From contig NC_013202.1 in assembly GCF_000023965.1 (NCBI RefSeq), positions 1,170,001 to 1,202,000 on the forward strand: DNA of 32,000 nt. Reading direction: 5' to 3'. This stretch comes from Halomicrobium mukohataei DSM 12286 (GTDB taxonomy: Archaea; Halobacteriota; Halobacteria; Halobacteriales; Haloarculaceae). This document shows, piece by piece, positions 6,251 through 27,986 of this stretch; position 1 is the first letter of the stretch; every line of letters begins with the position of its first letter. The notes under the pieces are model-generated. The model was given only the letters and a program-made list of their open reading frames with translations, made no database searches and was not told where the DNA came from. The translations under genes were made by a program, and so were the position numbers.

Positions 6251-7495
6251 ATGAGTCACAGTGAGACAGAGGCCCTCGACGTCGAGTCCATCCGGGACGA
6301 GTTCCCGATCCTCGACCGGGAGTTCGACGGAACGCCGCTCGTGTACCTCGACAACGCGGCGACGAGCCAGACGCCGGACCAGGTCATCGACTCGATCAGT
6401 CACTACTACCGACACTACAACGCCAACGTCCACCGCGGCCTCCACCAGCTGAGTCAGGAGGCCTCGATCGCCTACGAGGAGGCCCACGACCGGGTCGCGG
6501 AGTTCATCGGGGCGAGCGGCGGGCGCAAAGAGGTCGTGTTCACGAAGAACACGACGGAGTCGATGAACACGGTCGCCTACGCGTGGGGGCTCGCCGAGCT
6601 GGGCCCCGGCGACGAGGTCGTCCTCACGGAGATGGAACACCACGCCGCGCTCGTGACCTGGCAACAGATCGCCAAGAAGACCGGCGCGACGGTGAAGTTC
6701 GTGGAGGTCGACGAGGACGGACGCCTCGACATGGACCACGCTCGCGAGCTGATCACCGACGACACCGAGATGGTCAGCGTCGTCCACGTCTCGAACACGC
6801 TGGGGACCGTCAACCCCGTCTCCGAGCTGGCCGACATCGCCCACGATCACGACTCGCTGATCTTCGTCGACGGGGCGCAGTCGGTGCCACACATGCCCGT
6901 CGACGTGGAGGCCATCGACGCGGACTTCTTCGCCTTTTCGGGCCACAAGATGTGTGGTCCGACCGGCGTCGGCGTCCTCTACGGCAAAGAGCACCTGCTC
7001 GACGCGATGCAGCCGTACCTCTACGGGGGAATGATGATCGAGAAGGTGACCTTCGAGGACTCGACGTGGCACGAACTCCCCTGGAAGTTCGAGGCCGGCA
7101 CGCCGGTCATCAGCGAGGGGATCGCACTCGCCGAGGCCTGTGACTACCTCGATTCGATCGGGATGGAGCGCGTCCACCGCCACGGCACGGAACTGGCGGC
7201 GTACGCCTACGACCGCCTCCAGGAGTTCGACGACATCGAGATTCTGGGGCCGGGCGGCGACGAACGGGCCGCGCTGGTCTCGTTCGACATGGACAACGTC
7301 CACGCCCACGACGTTTCGGAGATTCTCAACGCCAACGGCGTCGCCGTCCGCGCGGGCGATCACTGTACGCAGCCGCTACACGACAAGCTCGGCGTCTCCG
7401 CGTCGACGCGGGCTTCGTTCTACATCTACAACACTCGCGAGGAAGTGGACGCGCTGGTCGACGCACTCGATCAGGCCCGCGAGCTGTTCGCGTAG
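6251..7495 (+). CDS. sufS: Cysteine desulfurase, SufS type (class V aminotransferase)
   Basis: 414 aa with a PLP-lysine motif (FSGHKMCGPTGVG) and a catalytic Cys motif (RAGDHCTQP). Confidence 0.9.
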   Translation: MSHSETEALDVESIRDEFPILDREFDGTPLVYLDNAATSQTPDQVIDSISHYYRHYNANVHRGLHQLSQEASIAYEEAHDRVAEFIGASGGRKEVVFTKNTTESMNTVAYAWGLAELGPGDEVVLTEMEHHAALVTWQQIAKKTGATVKFVEVDEDGRLDMDHARELITDDTEMVSVVHVSNTLGTVNPVSELADIAHDHDSLIFVDGAQSVPHMPVDVEAIDADFFAFSGHKMCGPTGVGVLYGKEHLLDAMQPYLYGGMMIEKVTFEDSTWHELPWKFEAGTPVISEGIALAEACDYLDSIGMERVHRHGTELAAYAYDRLQEFDDIEILGPGGDERAALVSFDMDNVHAHDVSEILNANGVAVRAGDHCTQPLHDKLGVSASTRASFYIYNTREEVDALVDALDQARELFA

Positions 7496-7497
7496 CG
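7429..7497. repeat. Direct repeat copy A: last 65 nt of sufS, including the stop codon, plus 2 nt
   Basis: 69/69 nt identical to 7683..7751 (caacactcgcgaggaagtggacgcgctggtcgacgcactcgatcaggcccgcgagctgttcgcgtagcg). Confidence 0.97.
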
Positions 7498-7682
7498 GAC
7501 GAGCATCCGCGCCATAGGCGCGGTTCACCGGTCCGACTGCAGGAGGTCCGGCGTTTTTCGCCCACGTTCGCAAGAGCGCCGCTCTTGCGAGCTCATCAGA
7601 GATCGAAGATTTCTGAGGACGTTTTTGCGCAAGCGGTTCGCGAGTACAGCGAGCGAACCCGCAGAGCAAAAAGGTGGTCTCG
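7498..7682 (+). repeat. Structured intergenic repeat element, copy 1 (plus orientation)
   Basis: Blocks in order:
- GC hairpin at 7507-7523 (ccgcgcc-ata-ggcgcgg).
- TTTTTCGCCCAC.
- Palindrome at 7569-7589 (cgcaagagcg-c-cgctcttgcg).
- Long hairpin module at 7622-7672 (TTTTTGCGC..GGTTCGC-loop-GCGAACC..GCAAAAA).
The block order matches the element at 15306-15464. Confidence 0.8.
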
Positions 7683-7751
7683 CAACACTCGCGAGGAAGT
7701 GGACGCGCTGGTCGACGCACTCGATCAGGCCCGCGAGCTGTTCGCGTAGCG
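7683..7751. repeat. Direct repeat copy B: orphan copy of the sufS 3' end
   Basis: Perfect 69-nt copy of 7429..7497, located 254 bp downstream and not attached to any gene body. Confidence 0.97.
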
Positions 7752-7837: not shown

Positions 7838-8857
7838 TCAGCCGCCGTCACCGGGCTGGTGGCGCTCTCGGGCGACGTACTGCCACTCGTCCCGGCCGAG
7901 CCCATCCGTGCCGTTCGAGTAGGCGAGCTGGTCGTACAGCCCGTTGTAGTTCATGACGCTGTCGTACTCCTCGGTGGAGTACGTCTTGCTGTCGACGCCT
8001 TCGGCTCGGCCGTCGAGGCCGAAGGCGTGTCCCAGTTCGTGCATGAACAGCGACGCGGTGAGTTTCGGCGCGTCGAAGGTCTGCATCGCGACGATGCCGG
8101 GGCGGCCGGCACCGACGTAGCGGGGCTGTCCGTCGTAGGCCACGTCGTCGGCCAGGACGACGTAGTAGTACGCCGAGCCGCTGGCGTCGAAGTGGTCCTC
8201 GCGGAAGTCGTACATGTCGTCGCGCGGTCCGGGCCTGTCGGTAGAGTAGACGGTGGCGTTGCTTTCGAGCCCCCGGTCGTCAACGAGGACGTGTATATCG
8301 ATCCCCGACCCACCGCTCGGGTTCTCGACTGGGGCGTCCGCGAACGTCCGCTCGATCAGGTCGACGGCGGCCTCGCTCAACCGATTCTCGCCGGTCGCGT
8401 CGACCTCGACGTAGATGTCGTGTTCGAGCGGGTCGGCGTCGGGGTACAGCGGGTCGTCGACCTCGGTACCGTCCGGGATACCGTCACCGTCCGTGTCGGG
8501 ATCTGTCGGGTCCGCTCCCAAGCTGCGTTCCCGCTCGTCGATCAGCCCGTCGGCGTCGGTGTCCGTCGCGTTCACCGACGCGGTCGAACCGTCGGGCTCG
8601 GTGGTACCGCCGACGCGCTGTCGTCGAATCGCGGCTCCGTCGGTTTCGGCGTCGTCGGCGTCGACCAGCCGCTCGGCCACTGTCGCGCCGCCGGCAGGGC
8701 GGACCTGCGTCTCGTCGTCGCTGACCGACACCGCCAGTGTGCCGCTGGCGACCGCTGCGACGACCAGCAGGGCGGTGACGACGTGGATCGGACCCACGCT
8801 CACGGCGTCGACGGGCGCGGCGAGTCGACCGCGACCGCCTCGTGGCCGGCTAGCCAT
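7838..8857 (-). CDS. Secreted or membrane-anchored zinc metalloprotease-like protein with calcium-binding repeats
   Basis: N-terminal hydrophobic anchor. DxDxDG thrombospondin-type-3-like repeats (DTDADGLID, DPDTDGDGIPDG). HELGHAFGLD zinc motif followed by a Met-turn-like SVMNY. Confidence 0.7.
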   Translation of the reverse strand: MASRPRGGRGRLAAPVDAVSVGPIHVVTALLVVAAVASGTLAVSVSDDETQVRPAGGATVAERLVDADDAETDGAAIRRQRVGGTTEPDGSTASVNATDTDADGLIDERERSLGADPTDPDTDGDGIPDGTEVDDPLYPDADPLEHDIYVEVDATGENRLSEAAVDLIERTFADAPVENPSGGSGIDIHVLVDDRGLESNATVYSTDRPGPRDDMYDFREDHFDASGSAYYYVVLADDVAYDGQPRYVGAGRPGIVAMQTFDAPKLTASLFMHELGHAFGLDGRAEGVDSKTYSTEEYDSVMNYNGLYDQLAYSNGTDGLGRDEWQYVARERHQPGDGG

Positions 8858-11172: not shown

Positions 11173-11389
11173 CTCCCGCTCGCCGCTTCCGAGGGCCGTG
11201 ACTCACTCCGTTCGTCACGCCCCTCGCTGCTCACGTGTCGTTCACTTCATTCGCTCCCGCTCGCCGCTTTCGAGGGCCGTGACTCACTCCGTTCGTCACG
11301 CCCCTCGCTGCTCACGTGTCGTTCACTTCATTCGCTCCCGCTCGCCGCTTTCGAGGGCCGTGACTCACTCCGTTCGTCACGCCCCTCGC
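11173..11389. repeat. 81-bp tandem repeat, about 2.7 copies, carrying the element core hairpin (minus orientation)
   Basis: GTGACTCACTCCGTTCGTCAC recurs at 11198, 11279 and 11360 (period 81). The copies differ at one position (c/t in cgccgctt[c/t]cgaggg). The array ends 45 nt before the RFC start codon. Confidence 0.95.
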
Positions 11390-11434
11390 GCGCATCCGGA
11401 AAATCCATACCCGTCGCTGGCCAACGACGATTCG

Positions 11435-13201: not shown

Positions 13202-13286
13202 ATAGCGGGCCACGGCGGAGGCCGGTATCGGCCACCCGTGGCTCGACATGGGAAGCTTCCTTAGGATCGAAGCAGTAGCTACGGTC

Positions 13287-15305
13287 ATGAAACGAGAGCC
13301 GCCACAGACCGAAGAGGGCTGGTACGTGTTGCACGACCTGCGCCACGTCGACTGGGACGCCTGGCGGGCGGCCCCCGAACGGGACCGCGACCGAGCGTTG
13401 ACCGACGGGATCGACTATCTGGAGTACTTCGAGGCCGTCGAGGACAGTTCGGAGGGGCAGTCGGCGGTCTACACCGTGCTGGGCGACAAGGCCGATCTCA
13501 TGATCTTGCACCTGCGGCCGACGATGGCCGACCTGGACGCCGCCGAGCGGCAGTTCGAGCAGACCGAGTTCGCCCGCTACACCGAGCAGGCCACCTCCTA
13601 CGTCTCCGTGACGGAGGCCTCGGGCTACACCGAGAAGGCCCGCGAGTACTTCGACGGCGAGGTCGACGACGACTCCGGGCTGGCACAGTACATCCAGGCC
13701 CGTCTACACCCCGACATCCCCGACGAGGAGTTCGTCTGCTTCTACCCGATGAGCAAGCGTCGCGAGCCGGACCAGAACTGGTACGACCTGCCCTTCGCCG
13801 AGCGGGCCGAACACATCAAGCGCCACGGTGACATCGGCCGTCAGTACGGCGGCAAGGTCGAGCAGATGATCGCCGGCTCGATCGGCTTCGACGACCACGA
13901 GTGGGGGATCACGCTCTGGAGCGACGACATGACCCACGTCAAGGACCTGCTGACTCAGATGCGCTTCGATCCCTCGACCTCGAAGTTCGCCGACTTCGGG
14001 CGCTTCTACGTCGGTCGCCGATTCGCGCCGTCGGACCTGCCGGCGATGATGAACGGCCAGCGCGTCCCGTCCGCGGGCGCGAACGCATCGGGAGCGACGA
14101 CCGACGGACGCGCCCAGCCCACCGACGGAGACCATCCCGGTACCCGCGAGACCGCGACGGCCGGCCAGTCCGGCGACGCGGGCAGTCACGGCGGCGTCCA
14201 TCCGGGCAGTTCCGCCGAGGGCGACCACCCCCACGACGGCGGCGACGTGGCCAGCCGAGACGGGGAAGCCGACGAGGCGAGCGAGAGCGGCGACGGCCAC
14301 CCCGATGGCGGCGGCCGTCCAGACCCCGGTGACGCGTCCTACGAGGAGACCGACGACCTCGCACAGCGCCTCGCCACGATGGGGCTGTCCGAGGGCGAGG
14401 ACTACGACGCTGGCGACTACGGACTGCTGTTCTACTCGGAGAGCGACGCCGAGGCACTGGCCGACGAAGTCGCGGATCTCCGGGAGAGCTTCGACCACTA
14501 CGACCGCCACGTCGCGACGACCGTGCGCGCCCAGAGCGGCCGGGCGGCCGTCGTGAGCATCTGGACCGCACAGGAAGCCGCCGAGACCGCCGCCGGGTTC
14601 CTGGGCGACGTGTCCGGGGTCAGCGACACCTACGGGGGCCGCCTCGGCGAGGGAGCCGCCGACGAGCCCGAGCCGACGACGGCGAACTCCAGCGAGGAGA
14701 TCCAGCAGCAACTTGCCGATGCAAACGTCTACGCCGGACAGCCGAACGGAGAGGACGTGTTCGCGCTGGTGCTGTACTCCGAGGCCGACCCCGAGACGCT
14801 GTCTACCGAAGTGACCGAGCTCACGGAGAGTTTCGATCACTACGACACACACGAGGGCACTGCGGTCTACGAGGCCGGCGAGCCCCTCGACGCCGCGACG
14901 GCGGACGCCGACCAGCCCCGAGCGGCCGTCGTCAGCCTCTGGGAGACCCAGAGCGCCGCCGACACGGCGAGTGGCTTCCTCACCGACCTCCCGGGGATCG
15001 TCGGCCGCCCCGACGAGGGCGACGGTTTCGGCACGATGGGGATGTTCTACACCGTCGAGCCGGACCACCGCGAGGAGTTCGTCGAGACCTTCGACGAGGT
15101 CGGCGAGCTACTCGACGAGATGGACGGCCACCGAGAGACGACGCTGCTGGCGAACCGCGACGACGTGAACGACATGTTCATCGCGAGCCAGTGGGACAGC
15201 AAGGAAGACGCGATGGCGTTCTTCCGGTCGGACGAGTTCGCCGAGACCGTCCAGTGGGGCCGAACAGTGCTCGCAGACCGTCCTCGGCACGTCTTCCTCG
15301 CCTGA
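13287..15305 (+). CDS. Chlorite dismutase-like (HemQ/Cld family) domain fused to a C-terminal ABM monooxygenase-like domain (PitA-like), with a long acidic insertion
   Basis: The N-terminal about 250 aa are Cld-like (WYVLHDLRHVDW...FYPMSKRR...RHGDIGRQYGG...). The C-terminal about 95 aa form an ABM fold (GMFYTVEPDHREEFVETFDEV...FIASQWDSKEDAMAFFRSDEF). About 300 aa of D/E/G/H-rich linker plus two internal repeats lie between them. An alternative start exists at 13248. Confidence 0.8.
   Translation: MKREPPQTEEGWYVLHDLRHVDWDAWRAAPERDRDRALTDGIDYLEYFEAVEDSSEGQSAVYTVLGDKADLMILHLRPTMADLDAAERQFEQTEFARYTEQATSYVSVTEASGYTEKAREYFDGEVDDDSGLAQYIQARLHPDIPDEEFVCFYPMSKRREPDQNWYDLPFAERAEHIKRHGDIGRQYGGKVEQMIAGSIGFDDHEWGITLWSDDMTHVKDLLTQMRFDPSTSKFADFGRFYVGRRFAPSDLPAMMNGQRVPSAGANASGATTDGRAQPTDGDHPGTRETATAGQSGDAGSHGGVHPGSSAEGDHPHDGGDVASRDGEADEASESGDGHPDGGGRPDPGDASYEETDDLAQRLATMGLSEGEDYDAGDYGLLFYSESDAEALADEVADLRESFDHYDRHVATTVRAQSGRAAVVSIWTAQEAAETAAGFLGDVSGVSDTYGGRLGEGAADEPEPTTANSSEEIQQQLADANVYAGQPNGEDVFALVLYSEADPETLSTEVTELTESFDHYDTHEGTAVYEAGEPLDAATADADQPRAAVVSLWETQSAADTASGFLTDLPGIVGRPDEGDGFGTMGMFYTVEPDHREEFVETFDEVGELLDEMDGHRETTLLANRDDVNDMFIASQWDSKEDAMAFFRSDEFAETVQWGRTVLADRPRHVFLA
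15255..15305. repeat. Diverged direct repeat copy A: last 16 codons plus stop of the pitA-like gene
   Basis: Encodes WGRTVLADRPRHVFLA*. Pairs with 15465..15515. Confidence 0.85.
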
Positions 15306-15464
15306 GAACGGCCACGAGTGACGCGAGTGGCCGCTTTTTCGCCACCGGGAGAGCAAGCTCTCCCGAGCCCACACTCGCTTTGCTCGCGTGGACCGCGTTT
15401 TTGCGCGAGGGTTCCCGCAACGAACGGAGTGAGTGAAGAAACCCGACGCGGAAAAAGGAGGAGT
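15306..15464 (+). repeat. Structured intergenic repeat element, copy 2 (plus orientation)
   Basis: Blocks in order:
- Hairpin at 15310-15332 (ggccac..gtggcc) followed by T5 at 15335-15339.
- TTTTTCGCCAC.
- Palindrome at 15346-15365 (cgggagagc-aa-gctctcccg).
- Hairpin module at 15398-15456 (TTTTTGCGCGAGGGTT...CGAACGGAGTGAGTGA...AACCCGACGCGGAAAAA). Confidence 0.8.
15310..15339 (+). terminator. Possible transcription terminator (GC hairpin followed by T5)
   Basis: ggccac-N11-gtggcc, then gcTTTTT, beginning 5 nt after the stop codon. Oligo-T tracts are the known archaeal termination signal. Confidence 0.4.
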
Positions 15465-15515
15465 TGGGGGCGGACGGTGCTGACCGACCGTCCGCGCCAC
15501 GTCTTCCTAGCATAG
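15465..15515. repeat. Diverged direct repeat copy B: orphan 3' end encoding WGRTVLTDRPRHVFLA*
   Basis: 39/51 nt identical to copy A. The differences are almost all third-position synonymous, and an in-frame stop is retained (TAG versus TGA). Confidence 0.85.
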
Positions 15516-18083: not shown

Positions 18084-19084
18084 AACGCTCTTGTGAAGCA
18101 CGTTGTTGATTTTCAGAGTGCGGCGTTGAGAGCATGTTTGAGTGCTTCGTCACCTGGTTTTCTGTAGAGTTCACGGCGGAGTTCGAAGGCTCTGAGATAC
18201 GGCGTTAGCTTGTCTTTCGAGACGCCTCGATGGGGGCGAGAGCCACCGTCGCGTCAGCGACGCGTGGCTCTCGCAGCCGTTGACGTGTACTTCGCCATCA
18301 GCGTATTCACCGTCGCTGTGGACGACGTATTTGCGGGTGAATGAGTCGTCGTCTTCTAGTGGGTCGTAGGCCCGAAATCCGTCCGTATAGACGGTCAGTG
18401 ACTCCTCTTCGTGGTCAGCAAGCAGGAGTCGAACGGTCGATTCGTCAGCGGATTTCGCTGGCACGACGTACCGCTCGTCCGAACCACGATCGACGAGCGT
18501 GAACACCGGCGGTTTGTCGCCGTCGTACGATCCCCGTCCACGCGTGGACAGGCCACGCGAGCGCGACTCCTGGTCACGCTCGCGGCCTTTGAGACCAGCA
18601 GAGACGTACACTTCGTCGATTTCGACCGGTCCAGACAGCGTAATCGAAGGCGCGTCGAGAGTTCTGGCGAACTGCTCGACGTGCCGTCTCACCGTCCGGT
18701 AGGAACAATCAAGCTCTGCCTCGATTTGCCGAATACTCGTGTTGAACCGTAAGAACACGTAGATCGTGAAGTACCATTCTTTGAGCTTCAGCTTCGAGTG
18801 AGCGAAGATCGTGTCGGTCTTGTCGTTGAACGTGCGACCGCAATTCTTACACAGATACCGTTGATACACCCGGTAGCTGCCGTTTCTGACCGTCAGGTCA
18901 GAACGGCAGCGGGGGCACTCGACGCCATCACGCCAGCGAACCTGTTCCAGCAGGTCCGCTGCAGCCGATTCCGACACGAACCGGCTTATTGGGAACATAT
19001 CGGGCACCGCTAGCGCGGTGCCCTTGCCCTCTTCGACTTTCAGCTCCAGCCATCGCTATCAACAATCTCCTTCGCAAGAGCGTT
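18084..19084 (-). mobile_element. IS1595-family insertion sequence (ISH4-like size, about 1.0 kb)
   Basis: Imperfect terminal inverted repeats: AACGCTCTTGTGAAGCACGTTGTTGAT (left) versus the reverse complement of the right end, AACGCTCTTGCGAAGGAGATTGTTGAT. It encloses a transposase gene. I found no matching target-site duplication. Confidence 0.85.
18113..19007 (-). pseudogene. IS1595-family transposase, interrupted by a 1-nt frameshift in a C5 run
   Basis: N-terminal zinc ribbon (CPRCRS...CKNCGRTF) and a DDE core. The ORF-track reading ends ...RRWLSPPSRRLERQ.... Removing one C of the run at 18232-18236 restores ...WLSPHRGVSKDKLTPYLRAFELRRELYRKPGDEALKHALNAAL*, ending at 18113. Confidence 0.8.
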
Positions 19085-20327
19085 GAGCTCTTTTTCCCGG
19101 TTTTCAGAACACTTCACCGCGGAGCTGAAATGCTTGGAAATACGGTGTACGCTCGTGTGAAGCACGTTGTTGGTAAATCAGAGGACGGTTCGAACGATTT
19201 CTTTGAGCGCTTCTTCACCGGGTTTGCGTAGGATTCGTCAGCGAAGTTGGAATACTCTGAGATACGGCGTCAGTTTGTCTTTGGAGACTCCTCGCAGGTA
19301 TTCACGTGTGCGTCTCCATCCACGTATTCACCCTCGCTGTGAATGACCGCTTCTCGCTGGTAGTGCTCGTCGTCTTCGAGTGGATCGTACGCTCGAAATC
19401 CATCAGTATAGCTGGTTAGCGACTCTTCCTCGCAGTCGCCGAGGAGGAGTCGCACGGTCGATTCGTCAGCGGATTTCGCCGAGACAACGTAGCGCTCACC
19501 CCTGCCACGATCGACCAACGTGAACACCGGTGGTTTGTCACCATCGTACGATCCTCGTCCACGCGTGGACAGACCACGCGAGCGCGACTCTTGATCGTGC
19601 TCGTGGCCCTTCAGCCCCGCAGTCACGTAGACTTCGCCGATTTCGGCCGGGCCAACGAGGCTGATGGCTGGCGCGTCGAGCGTTCTGGCGAACTGCTCGA
19701 CGCGCCGCCATAGTGACCGATACGAAACGGGGAGTTCAGCGTCCAACTGGTGGATACTCGTGTTGAACCGAAGAAACGAGTAGAACGCGAACAAGAGCTT
19801 GTCGGGAGCTTGTCCTCAGCGTATGTTCCACGTCCGCTCGTGAACAGGTCGCACTCGTGGCCCTTGAGACCCACTTTCATGTAGAACTCGTCGGTCTTAA
19901 CGGGGCTTTCGAGGTATGGTTGAGGCAAGCGCGTTCAGCGCTTGCAGGAAGCGCTGACACGCCGGTGGACCGTCTTGTAAGAAACGTCAATTTCTGCGTC
20001 TAGCTGCCTGAGACTCGTGTTCAAGCAGATGTGGATGTAGACGGCGAGAACTCACTTTCTGAGCGCGACCGTATAGTATTCGAAGATTGTGCCAGTCTGA
20101 TCGTTGAATGTGCGGTCGCAATTATCCCATAGAAGCTCTGAAACACTCGATAACTGCCGTACCGAATCACAGATCGGCACAGTAGCGTGGGAAATAGGCC
20201 GTCGCGCCGAGACGAACGCCTTGATTGGCATCATCGTTTGTCGGGTGATACGGTCACGTCACCCTTGCCTGCTGTGACTTCCAGTTACTGGTGAGAACTG
20301 ACCAACAATCTTCTACCCAAGAGCGTC
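19085..20327 (-). mobile_element. Mosaic of degraded IS1595-family copies (at least two)
   Basis: Components:
- 19085-19148: C-terminal remnant (TPYFQAFQLRGEVF*KPG).
- About 19149: a second left IR (ACGCTCGTGTGAAGCACGTTGTTGG).
- 19270-19794: truncated transposase core.
- 19800-20234: a more diverged copy with stops (NTSLRQLDAEIDVSYKTV..., CDRTFNDQTGTIF).
- About 20303-20327: right IR (reverse complement ACGCTCTTGGGTAGAAGATTGTTGGT). Confidence 0.75.
19270..19794 (-). pseudogene. IS1595-family transposase fragment lacking the zinc-ribbon N-terminus, with a C-terminal deletion and frameshift
   Basis: 174 aa, closely similar to residues about 80-250 of the 18171-19007 ORF (FLRFNTSI.Q..AEL..SYR...R.VEQFARTLDAP...GLKG.E.DQESRSRGLSTRGRGSYDGDKPPVFTLVDRG). 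It ends abnormally after VNTCE. The downstream frame has an internal stop (QLR*RILRKPG). Confidence 0.8.
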
Positions 20328-23123: not shown

Positions 23124-23533
23124 ACGAGCGGCCCCAGTCCGCCCCGATCGACGAACCGATCGGTCCCGTACCGGACGAGCGCCTCGGCGAGGCCGGGCAC
23201 CAGTGCGAACCCCAGCAGCAGCGGCCAGACGACGAGGTACGAACTGAGCGGATGGAGGTGGGTCCCGTAGGCCCACTGGTGCACCGTCTTGCCCAGCAGC
23301 CAGAGCGTCGCGGCCGCCGGTGTGACCAGCGACAGTCGGACGAGCAGGTACAGCGGGACGGCACCGATCAGGAAGAGGCCGACGAGGGCGTAACCGACGC
23401 CGAAGGCGGTCGCGGCCACGTCGTCGGTCGCCCAGTACACGCCGTTCGCGCGCAGCCACGCGAACACGACGGCCGCGTAGACGATACCACCGACGGCGGC
23501 GATGACGCGAGGGTCGCGGAGCCTGGAGGGCAT
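23120..23533 (-). CDS. Membrane protein, function unknown (137 aa)
   Basis: Four hydrophobic segments. Convergent with the previous gene, and the two stop codons overlap in a CTAG. Confidence 0.5.
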   Translation of the reverse strand: MPSRLRDPRVIAAVGGIVYAAVVFAWLRANGVYWATDDVAATAFGVGYALVGLFLIGAVPLYLLVRLSLVTPAAATLWLLGKTVHQWAYGTHLHPLSSYLVVWPLLLGFALVPGLAEALVRYGTDRFVDRGGLGPLV

Positions 23534-23613
23534 CGTCCGTCACTGCAGCCCCCTCGCACATCAATCTCGTCCCGACGCTAGAGCTTTGGGTCTCCCCGGC
23601 CACCGGCCATACG

Positions 23614-24519
23614 ATGGACCGTCGGCGCTCACTGCTCGTCGCCCTGGTGGCCCTGGCCGCCCTCGCCGGCTGTCTCTCGGGCGGGCCACAGACGCCAGCC
23701 GCGCCCGGCGACGCCGTCCCGGCAGGGAGCGACACCGTCAACGCCACGGTCACCCGCGTCGTCGACGGCGACACCGTCGAGATCCGATACGACGACGGGA
23801 CGTTCGACACCGTCCGGCTGCTCGGGATCGACACCCCCGAGACCCGCGGCGGGACGAACCCCGCGGAGTTCGAGGGCGTCCCCGACACCGCGGCCGGCCG
23901 GGCCTGTCTCGAACGGGCCGCCGGCAACGCGACCCGCGCCCTCGAAGCCCTCGTCGGCGGCGAGCCGGTCGTCGTCGCTGTCGACCCGCAAGCCGACCGA
24001 CGGGATCGCTACGATCGACTGCTGGCTCACCTCGTCGTCGACGGCGTCGACGCCAACGAACGGCTCGTCGAGCGGGGCCACGCGCGGGTCTACGACAGCG
24101 CGTTCTCGCGCTCGGACCGGTTCTACGAGCACGAACGGGCCGCGCGGGACGCCGGCCGCGGCGTCTGGGCCTGTGTGGACCCCGCCACGCCGACTGGCGG
24201 CGTCGGCCTCCGGGTCGTCGCCGACGCCCCGGGCGACGACCGCGAGAACCCCAACGGCGAGTACGTCGTCGTCTCGAACTCCGGGGGCGACCCGCTCGCG
24301 ATCGGCAACTGGACGGTCACCGACGAGGCCGGCCACAGGTACACCTTCCCGCCGGGCGCGACGGTGCCCGCGAACGGTTCGGTCCGACTCTACTCCGGTT
24401 CGGGGACCGACACCGCCACCGAGTTCTACCGCGGGAACGGCCCGATCTGGAACAACGACGGCGACACCGCCACCCTGCGCGCCGCGAACGGCACGGTCGT
24501 CGCCGCGGCGTCGTACTGA
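23614..24519 (+). CDS. Secreted thermonuclease (staphylococcal nuclease, SNase) fused to a lamin-tail domain; lipoprotein
   Basis: Signal peptide with lipobox (LAALAGC). SNase core (VVDGDTVEI...VRLLGIDTPE...DRYDRLLAHL...ERLVERGHARV). C-terminal LTD (ENPNGEYVVVSNSGGDPLAIGNWTVTDEAGHRYTFP...NNDGDTATL). Confidence 0.85.
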   Translation: MDRRRSLLVALVALAALAGCLSGGPQTPAAPGDAVPAGSDTVNATVTRVVDGDTVEIRYDDGTFDTVRLLGIDTPETRGGTNPAEFEGVPDTAAGRACLERAAGNATRALEALVGGEPVVVAVDPQADRRDRYDRLLAHLVVDGVDANERLVERGHARVYDSAFSRSDRFYEHERAARDAGRGVWACVDPATPTGGVGLRVVADAPGDDRENPNGEYVVVSNSGGDPLAIGNWTVTDEAGHRYTFPPGATVPANGSVRLYSGSGTDTATEFYRGNGPIWNNDGDTATLRAANGTVVAAASY

Positions 24520-24580
24520 CCGTCCGCGCGCTTCGCGGGCCGCGCGACACCCACAAACCGATCCAGTCCCAAGCGCAGGT

Positions 24581-25684
24581 ATGCGCCGGCCGGACTGGCT
24601 CCCGACGCGGCCGCTCCCCAGACTCGAACCTGGCCCGCGAGTCCTCGACTGGAGCCTCGCGGCCGCGGTCGCCCTCATTCTCGCGACGGGTGTCTACAGC
24701 CTCGTCGCGGGCCGGCCCGGACAGGCGTGGGTGTTCGATCTCCACGCGATCGGCGGGCTCGCGCTCGTGGTCCTCCTGGTCTTCAAGCTCCGCAGAGTCG
24801 CGCCACGGGTCACGCCCGATCGGCTCACCGCTCCCAGAGTGCTCTCGCTATCCCTCGCATTCGTCACCGCGGCGGCGCTCGCGACGGGGCTGTGGTGGGT
24901 GCTTGGCGGTTCCGTCTCGATCGGCCCGTGGGGGCTGTTGAACCTCCACGTCGGCGTCGGGCTGGTCGTCCCGGTCGTCCTCCTCTTGCACCTGCGCCAT
25001 CGGTTTCACGACCCACGGAACGTGCCGAGCCGCGACCGCCGCACAGCACTGCGGTACGCCGGCATCGCCGGCATCGCGGCCCTGACCTGGCGGAGCCAGC
25101 GAGTGCTCAACGACGCCCTCGATACGGCCGGCGCGGACCGGCGGTTCACCGGCTCTCGCGAGGTCGGGACGGACGAGGGCAACGCCTTCCCGCCGACGAG
25201 CTGGATGGCCGACGACCCCGATCCGATCGACAGCGACGAGTGGGTCCTGTCGGTCACCGGCCGGGTCGCCAGTCCCGCGACGTTCGGCGTCGACGACCTG
25301 GAACTGGACGATCTCGAGGGTGCCGACGAGCGGCGGGCCGTCCTCGACTGCACCAGCGGCTGGTACTCCGAGCACGACTGGCAGGGCGTCGCGGTCGCGG
25401 ACCTGTTGGCGGCGGTCGAACCGGACGACGCCGCCCGGTGGGTCCAGTTTCGCTCCGTGACGGGCTATCGCTGGTCGCTCCCCATCTCGGAGGCCGAGGA
25501 CGCACTGCTGGCGACCCACGTCGACGGCGACCGCCTCACACACGGTCACGGCGCGCCGATGCGACTGGTCGCGCCGGCACGACGCGGCCTCCAGTGGGTC
25601 AAGTGGGTCGACGAGGTCCGGCTCTCTCGCCGCCGCGAGATCGGCGAGTCGGTCGCGATCTTCGTCAGCGGCTTCGAGGAGTGA
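24581..25684 (+). CDS. Membrane-anchored molybdopterin-dependent oxidoreductase (sulfite-oxidase / YedY-MsrP fold)
   Basis: ATG at 24581. N-terminal TM helices, then a Moco-binding domain (RAVLDCTSGWYSEHDWQGV...FRSVTGYRWS...GHGAPMRLVAPARRGLQWVKWV). Confidence 0.8.
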   Translation: MRRPDWLPTRPLPRLEPGPRVLDWSLAAAVALILATGVYSLVAGRPGQAWVFDLHAIGGLALVVLLVFKLRRVAPRVTPDRLTAPRVLSLSLAFVTAAALATGLWWVLGGSVSIGPWGLLNLHVGVGLVVPVVLLLHLRHRFHDPRNVPSRDRRTALRYAGIAGIAALTWRSQRVLNDALDTAGADRRFTGSREVGTDEGNAFPPTSWMADDPDPIDSDEWVLSVTGRVASPATFGVDDLELDDLEGADERRAVLDCTSGWYSEHDWQGVAVADLLAAVEPDDAARWVQFRSVTGYRWSLPISEAEDALLATHVDGDRLTHGHGAPMRLVAPARRGLQWVKWVDEVRLSRRREIGESVAIFVSGFEE

Positions 25685-27317: not shown

Positions 27318-27369
27318 GGTGCTGGGATAGTCGCAGCCGTCGCTTAAGCACTGTGCTCCACCCGCGACA

Positions 27370-27450
27370 GCAAGCATATACCTGCCCGCGATCTACCGCA
27401 GACTATGGCTCAACGCTCTCTGGTCGTCTGTGCTCTCTGGTTCGTCTTCG
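27370..27450. repeat. Direct repeat copy A: orphan copy of the yccF-like promoter plus the first 46 nt of its CDS
   Basis: Aligns with 27574..27654 at an offset of 204. It includes the TATA-like catata (27375-27380) and an ATG at 27405, which opens a 39-codon decoy ORF (MAQRSLVVCALWFVFDDRFPRR...*, stop at 27522-27524). Confidence 0.9.
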
Positions 27451-27573
27451 ACGACCGTTTTCCGCGTCGGGTCTCCTCGCTCGCTCCGCTCGCTGCGGGG
27501 ACCCTCGCGCAAAACCGTCGATGAAAAAGGCAGCCACTCACTCCGTTCGTGGCTGATGCTGCTCTCCTCGCCC
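27451..27573 (-). repeat. Structured intergenic repeat element, copy 3 (minus orientation, short form)
   Basis: Read as the reverse complement:
- GAGCAGCATCA.
- Hairpin gccac-GAACGGAGTGA-gtggc (27533-27553), followed by CTTTTTC.
- Hairpin module GTTTTGCGCGAGGGTC...GACCCGACGCGGAAAAC (27458-27514).
It lacks the central palindrome block of copies 1 and 2. Confidence 0.8.
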
Positions 27574-27654
27574 GCAAGCATATACCTGCCCGCGATCTAT
27601 CGCCCGACATGGCTCAACGCTCGCTGGTCGTCCGTGCTCTCTGGTTCGTCTTCG
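27574..27654. repeat. Direct repeat copy B: functional promoter and 5' end of the yccF-like gene
   Basis: Differs from copy A at only 2 positions within the 46 coding nt (one synonymous, one Cys/Arg). Several more changes lie in the about 15 nt before the ATG. Confidence 0.9.
27579..27584 (+). promoter_or_regulatory. TATA-like box for a probably leaderless yccF-like transcript
   Basis: catata is centred about 27 nt upstream of the ATG at 27609, the spacing expected for haloarchaeal leaderless mRNAs. An identical box lies upstream of the decoy ATG at 27405. Confidence 0.35.
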
Positions 27655-27986
27655 TCGGCTGGTGGCTCACGCCGATTCTGGTCAACGTCGCGTGGCTGTT
27701 GAACGTTACCGTGATCTTGCTTCCGTTCGGGATCAAGCTCATCAACCTCGTCCCGACGGCGCTGACGCTGGCCGAACCCCGATCGCTGGCCGAGGGAACC
27801 GGCGCGTCACAGCCGTCGCTCGTGGTGCGGGCGATCTACTTCGTGCTCGTGGGCTGGTGGCTCTCGTGGCTGTGGGCCAACGTCGCCGCCGCGCTGTCGA
27901 TGACGATCGTCGGCATTCCGATCGCGATCTGGCTGTTCAACCGGCTTCCGTACGTCACGTCGCTGTACCGATTCCACGGGCGATAG
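27609..27986 (+). CDS. YccF-like (DUF307) inner membrane protein
   Basis: Two internal repeats of the YccF motif (RALWFVFVGWWL... and RAIYFVLVGWWLSWLW...GIPIAIW). Confidence 0.8.
   Translation: MAQRSLVVRALWFVFVGWWLTPILVNVAWLLNVTVILLPFGIKLINLVPTALTLAEPRSLAEGTGASQPSLVVRAIYFVLVGWWLSWLWANVAAALSMTIVGIPIAIWLFNRLPYVTSLYRFHGR

Follow-up and report, generated by a model that had tools for sequence, protein, structure and literature searches.

A modular hairpin cassette appears to have been copied in behind sufS of Halomicrobium mukohataei DSM 12286 together with a duplication of the gene end, its history since then being one of gene conversion between the two gene-end copies, deletion through them and provision of transcription terminators. 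We assign this reading, which as a whole explains the data best, a probability of approximately 0.6. Its parts differ in strength: membership of a cassette family, old age, conversion and deletion at sufS are very probable, and arrival by being copied in with a long target duplication is probable. The locus lies in a stretch of 32,000 nucleotides (contig NC_013202.1, positions 1,170,001 to 1,202,000), referred to here as the window, whose relevant features are collected in Table 1.

The product of the sufS reading frame scores 575 bits against the TIGR01979 SufS model (cut-off 475), and exactly the same protein was found in H. mukohataei DSM 12286, H. mukohataei JP60 and Halomicrobium sp. ZPS1. 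A preliminary description of this DNA had reported a perfect 69-bp duplication that leaves sufS intact and its second copy an orphan, and we recovered both; the two copies, X1 and X2, are identical at 69/69 positions and lie 254 nt apart, start to start. The composition of the repeat, given there as 65 nt of sufS plus 2 nt, had to be corrected to the last 67 nt of the coding sequence, including the TAG, plus 2 nt.

Table 1. Features of the window that bear on the sufS cassette (positions counted from the first nucleotide of the window).
Feature	Position	Strand	Basis or remarks
sufS CDS (cysteine desulfurase)	6251-7495	+	414-aa ORF; stop TAG 7493-7495
X1, gene-attached repeat copy	7429-7497	+	final 67 nt of sufS with its TAG, followed by CG
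Hairpin cassette E, 185 nt	7498-7682	+	sequence, fold, covariance-model match, family architecture
E, linker GACG	7498-7501	+	
E, 5' motif AGCAT	7502-7506	+	
E, h0 hairpin	7507-7523	+	
E, TTCACC	7524-7529	+	
E, h1 hairpin	7528-7551	+	
E, first T5	7554-7558	+	
E, nested 55-nt module (hpA 7568-7590, hpB 7596-7616)	7569-7623	+	bounded by ACGTT/ACGTT (7564-7568, 7619-7623)
E, second T5	7622-7626	+	
E, long hairpin h2	7623-7671	+	
E, fixed 3' end AGGTGG	7672-7677	+	
E, five junction nt TCTCG	7678-7682	+	
X2, orphan copy of sufS 3' end	7683-7751	+	69/69 identical to X1
Convergent gene downstream, 339-aa hypothetical protein	7838-8857	-	called gene in locus L001 and cluster members
81-nt x 2.7 tandem array, upstream of RFC small-subunit gene	11173-11415	+	
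Case B, 3' end of heme-binding/chlorite-dismutase-like gene (13248-15305)	15255-15511	+	X1 ~15255-15305; cassette 15306-15464 with hpA-hpB
Case C, minus-strand cassette (27454-27565) at gene 5' end	27362-27657	-	between two 92-nt copies, 87%

The segment between the two copies folds into 5-6 hairpins. On the plus strand the RNA fold reaches -95.7 kcal/mol (z = -5.8), a value matched by 0/200 shuffles, and on the minus strand z is -2.7. The nested hpA-hpB module is missing from the orthologous cassette of H. katesii and of the L005 and L006 genomes, and modules like it occupy the same internal position at 15330-15395 of the window and at loci L016, L021, L033, L059, L135 and L139.

The cassette belongs to a family with the architecture AGCAT-h0-GTTCAC-h1-T5-h2-AGGTGG, hpA-hpB being optional between T5 and h2. 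We collected 130 distinct copies, every one from Halobacteria or hypersaline metagenomes. An exact-pattern scan, for which ~0.1 matches are expected by chance, identified 37 genome loci, all in Halobacteria and spread over ~15 genera, and 96 more stretches in hypersaline metagenomes. Copies adjoin gene 3' ends and carry the modules h0, h1, hpA-hpB and h2 in varying combinations; among copies of one genome the stem sequences vary, and loops and junctions are conserved. The structure itself is conserved: 91.5% of the cells in the stem of h2 are paired, double-sided compensatory cells number 77 versus 27 +/- 3.5 in shuffles, and the covariation score is 0.27, while shuffles reach 0.07 and slid controls 0.03-0.08. 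A covariance model trained on 37 cassette copies from other genomes gave 57-80 bits on one strand versus 11-29 on the opposite strand, indicating that the cassette has a polarity. In their full-length form the cassettes make up the 3' end of a larger non-coding, structured element. The possibility that full-length copies share a conserved upstream protein gene was rejected, as the ORFs at those sites are unrelated.

Annotation resources are silent on the family. The whole window gave no Rfam 15 match at E <= 1, and at seven cassette loci, including the full-length L062 and L115, only a neighbouring tRNA reached its gathering score, the remaining four matches falling far under theirs. IMG/VR returned no matches, so that a viral origin is not favoured; cassette modules do match haloarchaeal plasmids, where they carry no annotation. 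We found no account of the family, nor the name NmIRS, in the literature searched, in which subscription journals were thinly covered, and an earlier report is possible. Identity with the HqIRS, which are IS-related sequences of Haloquadratum, was ruled out because their target duplications are short or absent (PMC3119063).

The covariance model finds exactly three cassettes in the window, at 7605-7679 (+, 64 bits), 15381-15463 (+, 57 bits) and 27450-27532 (-, 73.5 bits), and thereby bears out the earlier proposal that the 185-bp insert is homologous to inserts at two other gene termini. Behind the heme-binding/chlorite-dismutase-like gene the orphan copy is degenerate (15465-15511, 47 nt, 81%); at the same gene end in HArc-gm2 (L031) there is a cassette whose 46-nt repeat is perfect. 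The minus-strand cassette lies between an orphan copy (27362-27453) and a gene-attached copy (27566-27657) of the promoter and first 49 nt of a YccF-like gene (27609-27986). It was found in all assemblies, its H. katesii ortholog being L011. The array upstream of the RFC gene follows the same X-insert-X logic as the cassettes, its filler being 26 nt and its flank 55 nt long, and H. katesii has one unit only at that place. Elsewhere in the window, the ORF at 23502-24941 corresponds to no called gene.

Duplication of gene ends is a trait of the family. Flank duplications of 25-108 nt accompany 45 of the 118 evaluable copies, with medians of 57 nt for length and 98% for identity, and 13 of them are perfect. 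When 300 random positions of comparable loci were inspected, flank repeats of at least 25 nt turned up at just 1, which rules out chance. The layout is gene-X1-cassette-X2, with X2 starting 0-14 nt past AGGTGG. The inserted part varies continuously between 53 nt, when it consists of h2 only, and ~185 nt, when the cassette is complete, with a median of 107, and where a resident 5' part is present the new copy is joined to it in register. Polarity is strict: all callable duplications (37/37, p = 5.5e-10) derive from the 3' ends of co-oriented genes. Among the 73 copies that have no duplication, none shows direct or inverted flank repeats, and 37 lie 4-16 nt from the stop codon of a convergent gene. 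Duplication was never seen in copies that stand behind convergent genes at 0-10 nt from the stop codon. The 39 copies with a full 5' module likewise all have none. The duplicated genes are unrelated housekeeping genes, and one, a tRNA-Ser gene (L075), stands in the same X-insert-X layout. On its right side the duplicated segment often ends at the stop codon. In several X1/X2 pairs TGA or TAA gives way to TAG right at this border, as if the cassette supplied the stop codon, an effect that is not separable from edge erosion. Neither a target motif nor microhomology is evident at the upstream edge. Orphan copies at loci other than sufS have decayed to 81-93% identity.

These regularities could be accounted for with no mobility at all, if the cassettes were native terminators and the long palindrome h2 had provoked replication slippage, template switching or unequal recombination on the spot, with tandem partial duplications as the outcome. 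Palindromes are known hotspots of replication errors, tandem arrays exist both in the window and as multi-unit arrays at L015, L036 and L074, which could alternatively be products of unequal recombination, and several copies joined in register to a resident 5' part are followed by a second, degenerate h2. We nevertheless regard this explanation as improbable. At sufS and at many other sites unrelated flank follows directly after X2, with no second cassette, and a tandem duplication would thus also need a precise deletion; the cassettes of one array carry apical-stem indels and differ far more than their X copies do; re-entry points show no microhomology with GGTGG; and the same conserved cassette stands behind dozens of unrelated genes in many genera.

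A second alternative is a miniature non-autonomous DDE transposon, mobilized by an IS1634/IS1549-type transposase whose long variable stagger, once filled in, would leave long repeats. The preliminary description had judged the duplication too long for the known IS transposases; the misfit with ordinary 2-15-bp target duplications stands, but the long repeats of these elements had been overlooked. IS1549 and IS1634 make variable direct repeats of the target of 8-514 bp, long and of variable length like those of the cassette, and their family is common and enriched in Euryarchaeota (PMC2266710). Moreover, in Halobiforma the cassette is enclosed by a unit of ~190 nt whose terminal inverted repeats measure 15 bp (GTGCTGAATACAGAG/CTCTGTATTCAGCAC), and so can travel inside a classical MITE. 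These TIR-bounded copies, however, have no long repeats. The IS elements measure 1.5-2 kb and carry a DDE transposase and terminal inverted repeats, whereas the cassette measures 50-190 nt and has no such repeats in the lineages that make duplications, the Haloarculaceae included. By MITE criteria, too, its ends (AGCAT or variable versus AGGTGG) form no inverted repeats, Halobiforma excepted, and its flank repeats are variable or absent rather than of a fixed 2-15 bp. Unlike IS1634 and IS1549, the cassette combines a fixed 3' end with a variable 5' end and duplicates only co-oriented gene ends (37:0), when a symmetric staggered cut should yield both orientations. The transposase genes of the window are of the IS1595 family only, which makes duplications of about 8 bp, and none of the IS1634 family lies nearby. 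We therefore consider a transposon of this type a poor candidate. The fixed 3' end, the variable 5' extent, the long variable duplication and the strict polarity point instead to a polar copy-in rather than to classical cut-and-paste.

The insertion at sufS is old. Identical junctions and the same cassette occur in four genomes, namely the window genome, H. katesii, GCA_012726095 and KBTZ05, which fall into two sufS clades that differ at 7 of the 69 positions within the repeat; the cassette diverges between clades by ~5%. Between X2 and the X1 of the same genome there are 0-2 differences, between the X2 copies of the two clades 5-7, and X2 remains identical while the adjoining sequence diverges strongly. 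X1 and X2 thus evolve in concert, and since each orphan follows the sufS of its own clade, the perfect identity very probably reflects homogenisation by gene conversion and not youth. The earlier view of a recent event fails on the same grounds, the insert being common to H. katesii and two more Halomicrobium genomes. Its strongest form, a very recent insertion in the window strain with L002 as the pre-insertion site, would fit the 69/69 identity and the existence of a near-identical strain or run lacking exactly one repeat and the insert; the presence of cassette and junctions in H. katesii and in the second clade, whose sufS end differs at 7 positions and whose orphan has that clade's variants, makes it highly unlikely.

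The empty alleles that had been proposed as a check do exist (L002 and L003), but are best read as secondary deletions and not as pre-insertion sites. L002 is 100% identical to the window genome over 14.7 kb except for the precise absence of 254 bp, and one 'empty' allele, that of LC1Hm, keeps h0, the first hairpin of the cassette. The L002 and L003 alleles each correspond to the leftover expected from recombination between the repeats of the sister allele, and L002 is most simply a loss because the sister species is in the filled state. Elsewhere, Haloarcula salina MBLA0135 lacks a unit common to three relatives, and deletion via repeats has already been described in haloarchaea (PMC3119063). 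No identical donor for the sufS cassette was found among the scanned loci, nor any unambiguous recent gain with an empty outgroup among the loci examined.

Selection on a functional orphan, serving as a DGR-like template repeat or as a spare for 3'-end repair, could also hold X2 identical beside strongly diverging neighbours, and a gene 3' end followed by a hairpin and a near-identical copy resembles the VR/TR layout of DGRs. This is very implausible: there is no reverse transcriptase among the called genes in ~46 kb, X1 equals X2 in the window and the X1/X2 differences in other genomes are not adenine-specific, the orphans elsewhere decay, and the duplicated genes are unrelated. An assembly artefact, a misjoined or collapsed repeat, may be set aside even though the short-read assembly L002 lacks the unit and two contigs with the neighbouring gene, at just 2-5 kb, look as though a repeat had broken them, because the arrangement recurs in four independent assemblies, a complete genome and three from other species or strains, with clade-specific substitutions.

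In the copy-in reading, the cassette would have entered directly past the stop codon of sufS in an ancestor from which several Halomicrobium species descend. As in about 40% of the family, the terminal tens of bases of the co-oriented gene would have been copied a second time with it, to a position right after the fixed 3' end. A possible but tentative scheme for this step is a target-primed template switch on an RNA or single-stranded DNA template. Synthesis would be primed at a break at the gene end, 25-110 nt of the gene end would be re-copied, and synthesis would then switch to the cassette template, entering at its 3' end and running a variable distance toward its 5' end. Gene conversion would subsequently keep X2 identical to X1, and recombination between them would remove the cassette and generate the 'empty' alleles. 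The called genes around the window (~46 kb) include neither a reverse transcriptase nor a dedicated transposase. No T run follows AGGTGG, and an RNA 3' end at this point would need processing; in addition, the internal T5 runs should stop much of the transcription through the cassette. Priming by tRNA-CCA via the TGG end of the cassette was considered and rejected, the CCACC end lying 2 nt beyond the discriminator base. A still bolder proposal, which we think unlikely, is that Haloarculaceae harbour a polar target-primed copy-in system, possibly RNA-mediated, that spreads the 3' part of ~0.5-0.7-kb structured non-coding 'master' elements to gene ends and duplicates the last 25-110 nt. If true, such a system would naturally give rise to new terminators and 3' UTRs.

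After its insertion the cassette would supply oligo-T terminators on both strands between convergent genes. Both T5 runs of the plus strand follow a hairpin, and the single T5 run of the minus strand is the complement of 7668-7672; a simple terminator scan flagged only hpB with its T5. Judged from these sequence signals, the odds that the cassette is a transcription terminator are about even.

Gene ends and transcription boundaries are shaped by small structured repeats, which for archaea are barely catalogued; the present family extends over ~15 named genera and many metagenome contigs, unannotated and precisely at gene ends. It offers a testable handle on the birth and loss of archaeal terminators and 3' UTRs, on gene conversion at ectopic sites and deletion through repeats in the polyploid haloarchaea, and on the existence of a target-primed or template-switch insertion pathway in Archaea. 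In practical terms, orphan gene ends and perfect repeats are places where assemblies from short reads can break and annotation can go astray. The combination of traits seen here, with long, variable duplication of co-oriented gene ends only, a fixed 3' and a variable 5' end, and homogenisation of the orphan, was not found described for any prokaryotic element.

Several known systems share a part of it. The haloarchaeal MITEs, PATEs and SMRs (HqIRS) are, like the cassette, transposase-free intergenic repeats with nested insertions and loss by repeat-mediated deletion; MITEs, however, make short target duplications and PATEs and SMRs none, and no report describes any of them as duplicating gene ends or abutting stop codons (PMC3119063). 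We found no sequence relation between them and the cassette. The bacterial REP/BIME, BOX and ERIC elements are also small, modular, multi-copy hairpin units restricted to intergenic DNA just after genes, often between convergent ones, with variable and nested modules and roles as terminators or mRNA stabilisers. Their sequences are unrelated to the cassette, they lack long flank duplications, and REPs are tied to RAYT transposases. Integrase-mediated insertion at att sites likewise leaves a gene 3' end twice, one copy attached and one orphan, with the gene intact, as in the tRNA-Ser case, but integrative elements are kilobases long, encode their own integrase and use one specific att site, whereas the cassette consists of 50-190 nt of hairpins behind dozens of unrelated genes.

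Further likenesses are to SINEs and non-LTR retroposons. To our knowledge, nothing of the kind of SINE-like target-primed elements is known in archaea, and the proposed copy-in system, if real, would be the first SINE-like or retroposon-like family described there. In comparison with SINEs, the cassette has no poly-A tail and makes longer duplications (25-110 nt), which are bound to the 3' ends of genes. It shares with these elements a constant 3' end, variable 5' truncation, a variable target duplication and extra nucleotides at the junction, and their organization into 'master' structured-RNA genes with shorter dispersed copies is possibly mirrored by the cassette family.

The 69 nt at 7429-7497 recur with every position identical at 7683-7751 (starts 254 nt apart), on either side of the 185-nt insert, here called the cassette. 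The repeat consists of the final 67 nt of the sufS coding sequence including its TAG, followed by CG; the preliminary description had rightly placed the gene end with TAG plus 2 nt in the repeat, but had counted 65 coding nucleotides. The same SufS protein is found in H. mukohataei DSM 12286, JP60 and Halomicrobium sp. ZPS1. The insert forms five to six hairpins, with a plus-strand energy of -95.7 kcal/mol (z = -5.8, 0/200 shuffles equally stable) and a minus-strand z of -2.7; the noted 69/69 repeat around a hairpin-rich insert holds up, and it is non-random. Situated between convergent genes, the cassette carries a T5 run preceded by a hairpin twice on the plus strand and a single T5 on the minus strand, and because these occur on both strands it is a plausible, putative bidirectional terminator, a function read from sequence. 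Its nested hairpin pair, hpA-hpB, is missing from the orthologous sufS cassette of three relatives, and similar modules lie at the same internal position in other cassette copies, a pattern that indicates either site-specific nested insertion or else ectopic gene conversion between copies.

Features of the window discussed in the text (positions in nt)
Feature	Position	Strand or orientation	Description
sufS ORF	6251-7495		414 aa; 575 bits on SufS model TIGR01979 (cut-off 475)
Nested hpA-hpB module of sufS cassette	within 7564-7623		55 nt; bordered by 5-nt repeat ACGTT/ACGTT
Array D	11173-11415		81-nt x 2.7 tandem; upstream of RFC small-subunit gene; flank-filler-flank layout
Case B cassette	15306-15464		behind heme-binding gene (13248-15305); then decayed copy of the gene's end (47 nt, 81%)
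Intact IS1595-family transposase	18171-19007	minus	278 aa
Truncated IS1595-family transposase	19270-19794		
Case C cassette	27454-27565	reverse	between two 92-nt copies (87%)

With a covariance model trained on the copies of other genomes, exactly three cassettes were recovered in the window (sufS, B and C), in agreement with the homologous inserts reported at two other gene termini, and no further one in ~46 kb of the window's chromosome. Each of the 92-nt copies in case C comprises the promoter of a YccF-like gene and the gene's initial 49 nt. The orphan copy there retains the YccF promoter region, ATG and 16 codons and runs on into the reversed cassette, which gives a 38-codon open frame (27405-27521), beginning MAQRSLVVCALWFVFDDRFPRR, possibly a de novo small ORF, as predicted from sequence. 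Tandem array D, inside which the L002 contig described below ends, repeats the layout of the cassette sites. H. katesii has a single 55-nt unit at this site; in the window genome two more have been gained, both made up of a 26-nt filler (TGCTCACGTGTCGTTCACTTCATTCG) and the 55-nt flank, and the array unit includes the reverse complement of the cassette family's GAACGGAGTGA-loop hairpin. The window also holds two IS1595-family (ISH4-like) transposase genes (18137-19928), which lie in a diverged duplication of ~1 kb (81% over 300 nt, 77% over 93 nt) and have no relation to the cassette.

The sufS 3' region was compared across the assemblies of H. katesii, GCA_012726095, KBTZ05, L002 (a contig of run SRR017873) and LC1Hm. 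H. katesii has the same cassette, junctions and 69/69 repeat, and differs only in missing the nested 55-nt two-hairpin module. In a second clade (GCA_012726095, KBTZ05), the cassette is present with its right-hand junction unchanged, and the repeat spans 95 nt, taking in the sufS end and the cassette's first hairpin. Between the clades the sufS end differs at 7/69 positions and the cassette by ~5%. Each clade's own orphan copy carries that clade's variants of the sufS end, with 0-2 differences from its own sufS and 5-7 from the other clade's orphan. The simplest reading is that a single insertion took place in an ancestor and that gene conversion then homogenised both repeat copies. Because the orphan tracks its own gene, the perfect identity of the two copies is no sign of youth; the insertion is old and its repeat evolves in concert, which overturns the proposal of a recent event.

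Empty sites had been suggested as a check, and relatives do provide them, but they are best read as losses. L002 is 100% identical to the window genome over 11,247 + 3,537 nt and lacks exactly 254 nt; since the contig is unbroken across the repeat, the insert is absent or rare in the SRR017873 reads. LC1Hm is without the cassette but keeps a hairpin, identified as the h0 module by family comparison. Both alleles are the expected product of recombination between the sister allele's repeats (69-nt for L002, 95-nt for LC1Hm), and given that the sister species H. katesii is filled, they most simply represent repeat-bounded precise losses, not pre-insertion sites. Repeat-mediated deletion is documented in haloarchaea (PMC3119063), and a similar loss of a cassette unit was seen between two Haloarcula salina strains.

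The sufS insert belongs to a conserved, structured, multi-copy family. We scanned for the pattern TTTTGCGCRAG...ACCCGMMGMGSAAAA, common to all three window copies and expected by chance ~0.1 times in 596 Gb. With one genome per species, this yielded 37 stretches, in Halobacteria only (Halomicrobium, Haloarcula, Halorientalis, Halosimplex, Halorhabdus, Halapricum, Halovenus, Haloglomus, Halobiforma, Haloterrigena, Halostagnicola, Natronococcus, others and MAGs), metagenomes added 96, and viral contigs gave zero matches; de-duplication left 130 distinct copies. Copies occur on plasmids, without annotation. The consensus runs AGCAT, h0, GTTCAC, h1 (loop GAGCGAAGCGA or GAACGGAGTGA), CTTTTTCRCCCAYGT and the optional hpA-hpB, then TTTTGCGCRAG, the h2 apical stem and ACCCGMMGCGGAAAAAGRTGG. 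Stem sequences vary between copies while pairing is retained: in h2, 91.5% of alignment cells are paired, with 77 double-sided compensatory cells (shuffles 27 +/- 3.5) and a covariation score of 0.27 (shuffles 0.07, slid registers 0.03-0.08). G-U intermediates are nearly missing in h2, so the palindrome pairs on both strands; despite this, cassette model scores are strongly strand-specific. A purine-rich motif of 11-12 nt, either GAGCGAAGCGAG, which is a perfect mirror repeat, or GAACGGAGTGAG, recurs throughout the family in the h1/h0 loops and at some h2 apices, on freely varying stems (for example window 15320-15330 and 27530-27545; loci L031 and L036); it may be a putative protein-binding or structure-specific recognition site. 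No Rfam family matches the window or the cassette in the seven cassette-bearing loci scanned, and no description of the family was found in the full-text literature searched; it is an undescribed haloarchaeal element family within the known class of small structured non-autonomous repeats.

Halobiforma carries the cassette within a ~190-nt unit that has 15-bp terminal inverted repeats (GTGCTGAATACAGAG / CTCTGTATTCAGCAC) and is present in near-identical copies (L023, L026, L034, L035 and L037 of Halobiforma haloterrestris, L032 of H. nitratireducens) with no long flank repeats around them; from its sequence, the unit looks like a conventional MITE, amplified recently, that carries the cassette as cargo. 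Elsewhere, in many genomes, ~300-600 nt of additional conserved non-coding sequence precede the full-length cassette, which forms their 3' end (L013:2129-2520, L111:1375-1850, L129:3507-3972 and 15 or more other loci); conserved stretches include ACTGAACGCCCTCG, CTGTGCGGGATATCCTC, TCGAATAGTGCCCGCGCAG, CCTCGCCCGTTCATTCCACCAGG, ACAGCACCGCnCCACACGCCTCCCCAACCGATTC and CATCCCTCGCACAGTGT, and the genes upstream are mutually unrelated. On the cassette's plus strand, this block shows compensatory changes, covarying helices and G-U pairs that are conserved, as in structured RNA, and it has no match in Rfam; it may be a candidate for a haloarchaeal family of large structured RNAs not yet described. It is present in H. 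katesii, was not found in the 46 kb examined of the window's chromosome, and block and cassette also occur apart.

Direct repeats of 25-108 nt bracket 45/118 evaluable copies (38%; median 57 nt, median identity 98%, 13 perfect), compared with 1/300 positions drawn at random from these loci. In 37/37 callable cases (binomial p = 5.5e-10), what is duplicated is the 3' end of a gene co-oriented with the cassette, the convergent gene's end never being the sole one (0/37), and in about 20 of the 37 the high-identity repeat stops -3 to +5 nt from the stop codon. The orphan copy begins 0-14 nt past the invariant cassette 3' end AGGTGG, and erosion is often stronger in its first few bases than in the middle. 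The inserted part forms a continuum from h2 alone (53 nt, junction CCCACGT followed by TTTTGCGC) up to the whole cassette, and where the target held a resident 5' cassette part, the new copy was joined in register. Among copies without duplication, the core of 37/73 ends 4-16 nt from a convergent gene's stop codon (AGRTGG end 0-10 nt from it, often 0-1 nt), only 4/73 lie behind a co-oriented gene and 0/73 have inverted flank repeats; all 39 copies that have the complete 5' module belong here. Among named genomes, duplication-type copies are confined to Haloarculaceae genera and the unclassified HArc-gm2, with none in 10 Natrialbaceae or 5 Haloglomus copies. A gain at tRNA-Ser(GGA) in two metagenome contigs (L075:3647-3910, L124), compared with the orthologous site L115:156-250, shows the order tRNA, ~155-nt hairpin insert, 22-nt orphan of the tRNA 3' end and resident cassette, the latter reverse-oriented; since a tRNA gene shows the duplication layout, the process is independent of translation. 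Duplication is polarity-dependent, with a fixed 3' end and variable 5' extent.

The repeat had been set apart from the target-site duplications of insertion sequences. It is indeed not an ordinary one, but this overlooked IS1634/IS1549 (PMC2266710), a precedent for a DDE transposase of the classical kind that cuts with a long stagger; that reading is disfavoured, as there are no inverted repeats and duplication obeys the polarity rule. Against purely local slippage stand the lack of a second cassette after the orphan in most copies and the cassettes of single arrays, which differ among themselves far more than their repeats do.

We infer instead that a polar copy-in event at the end of the gene made the duplication. 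The sufS observation generalises to a haloarchaeal element family with unusual polarity-dependent gene-end duplication. In one scheme that reproduces every junction, the complement of the gene's sense strand would be nicked at the gene end, and synthesis starting there would re-copy 25-110 nt of that end by strand displacement. A cassette, as RNA or single-stranded DNA, would then take over as template; it would be entered at its 3' end and copied toward the 5' end for a variable distance, after which the new strand would be rejoined to the displaced one. The scheme accounts neither for opposite-orientation cassettes without duplication nor for the frequent stop-codon edge. A retroposon-like pathway new to Archaea behind the gene-end duplication appears unlikely, at roughly one chance in five. 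Formally, the nick-primed scheme resembles target-primed reverse transcription or template-switch repair.
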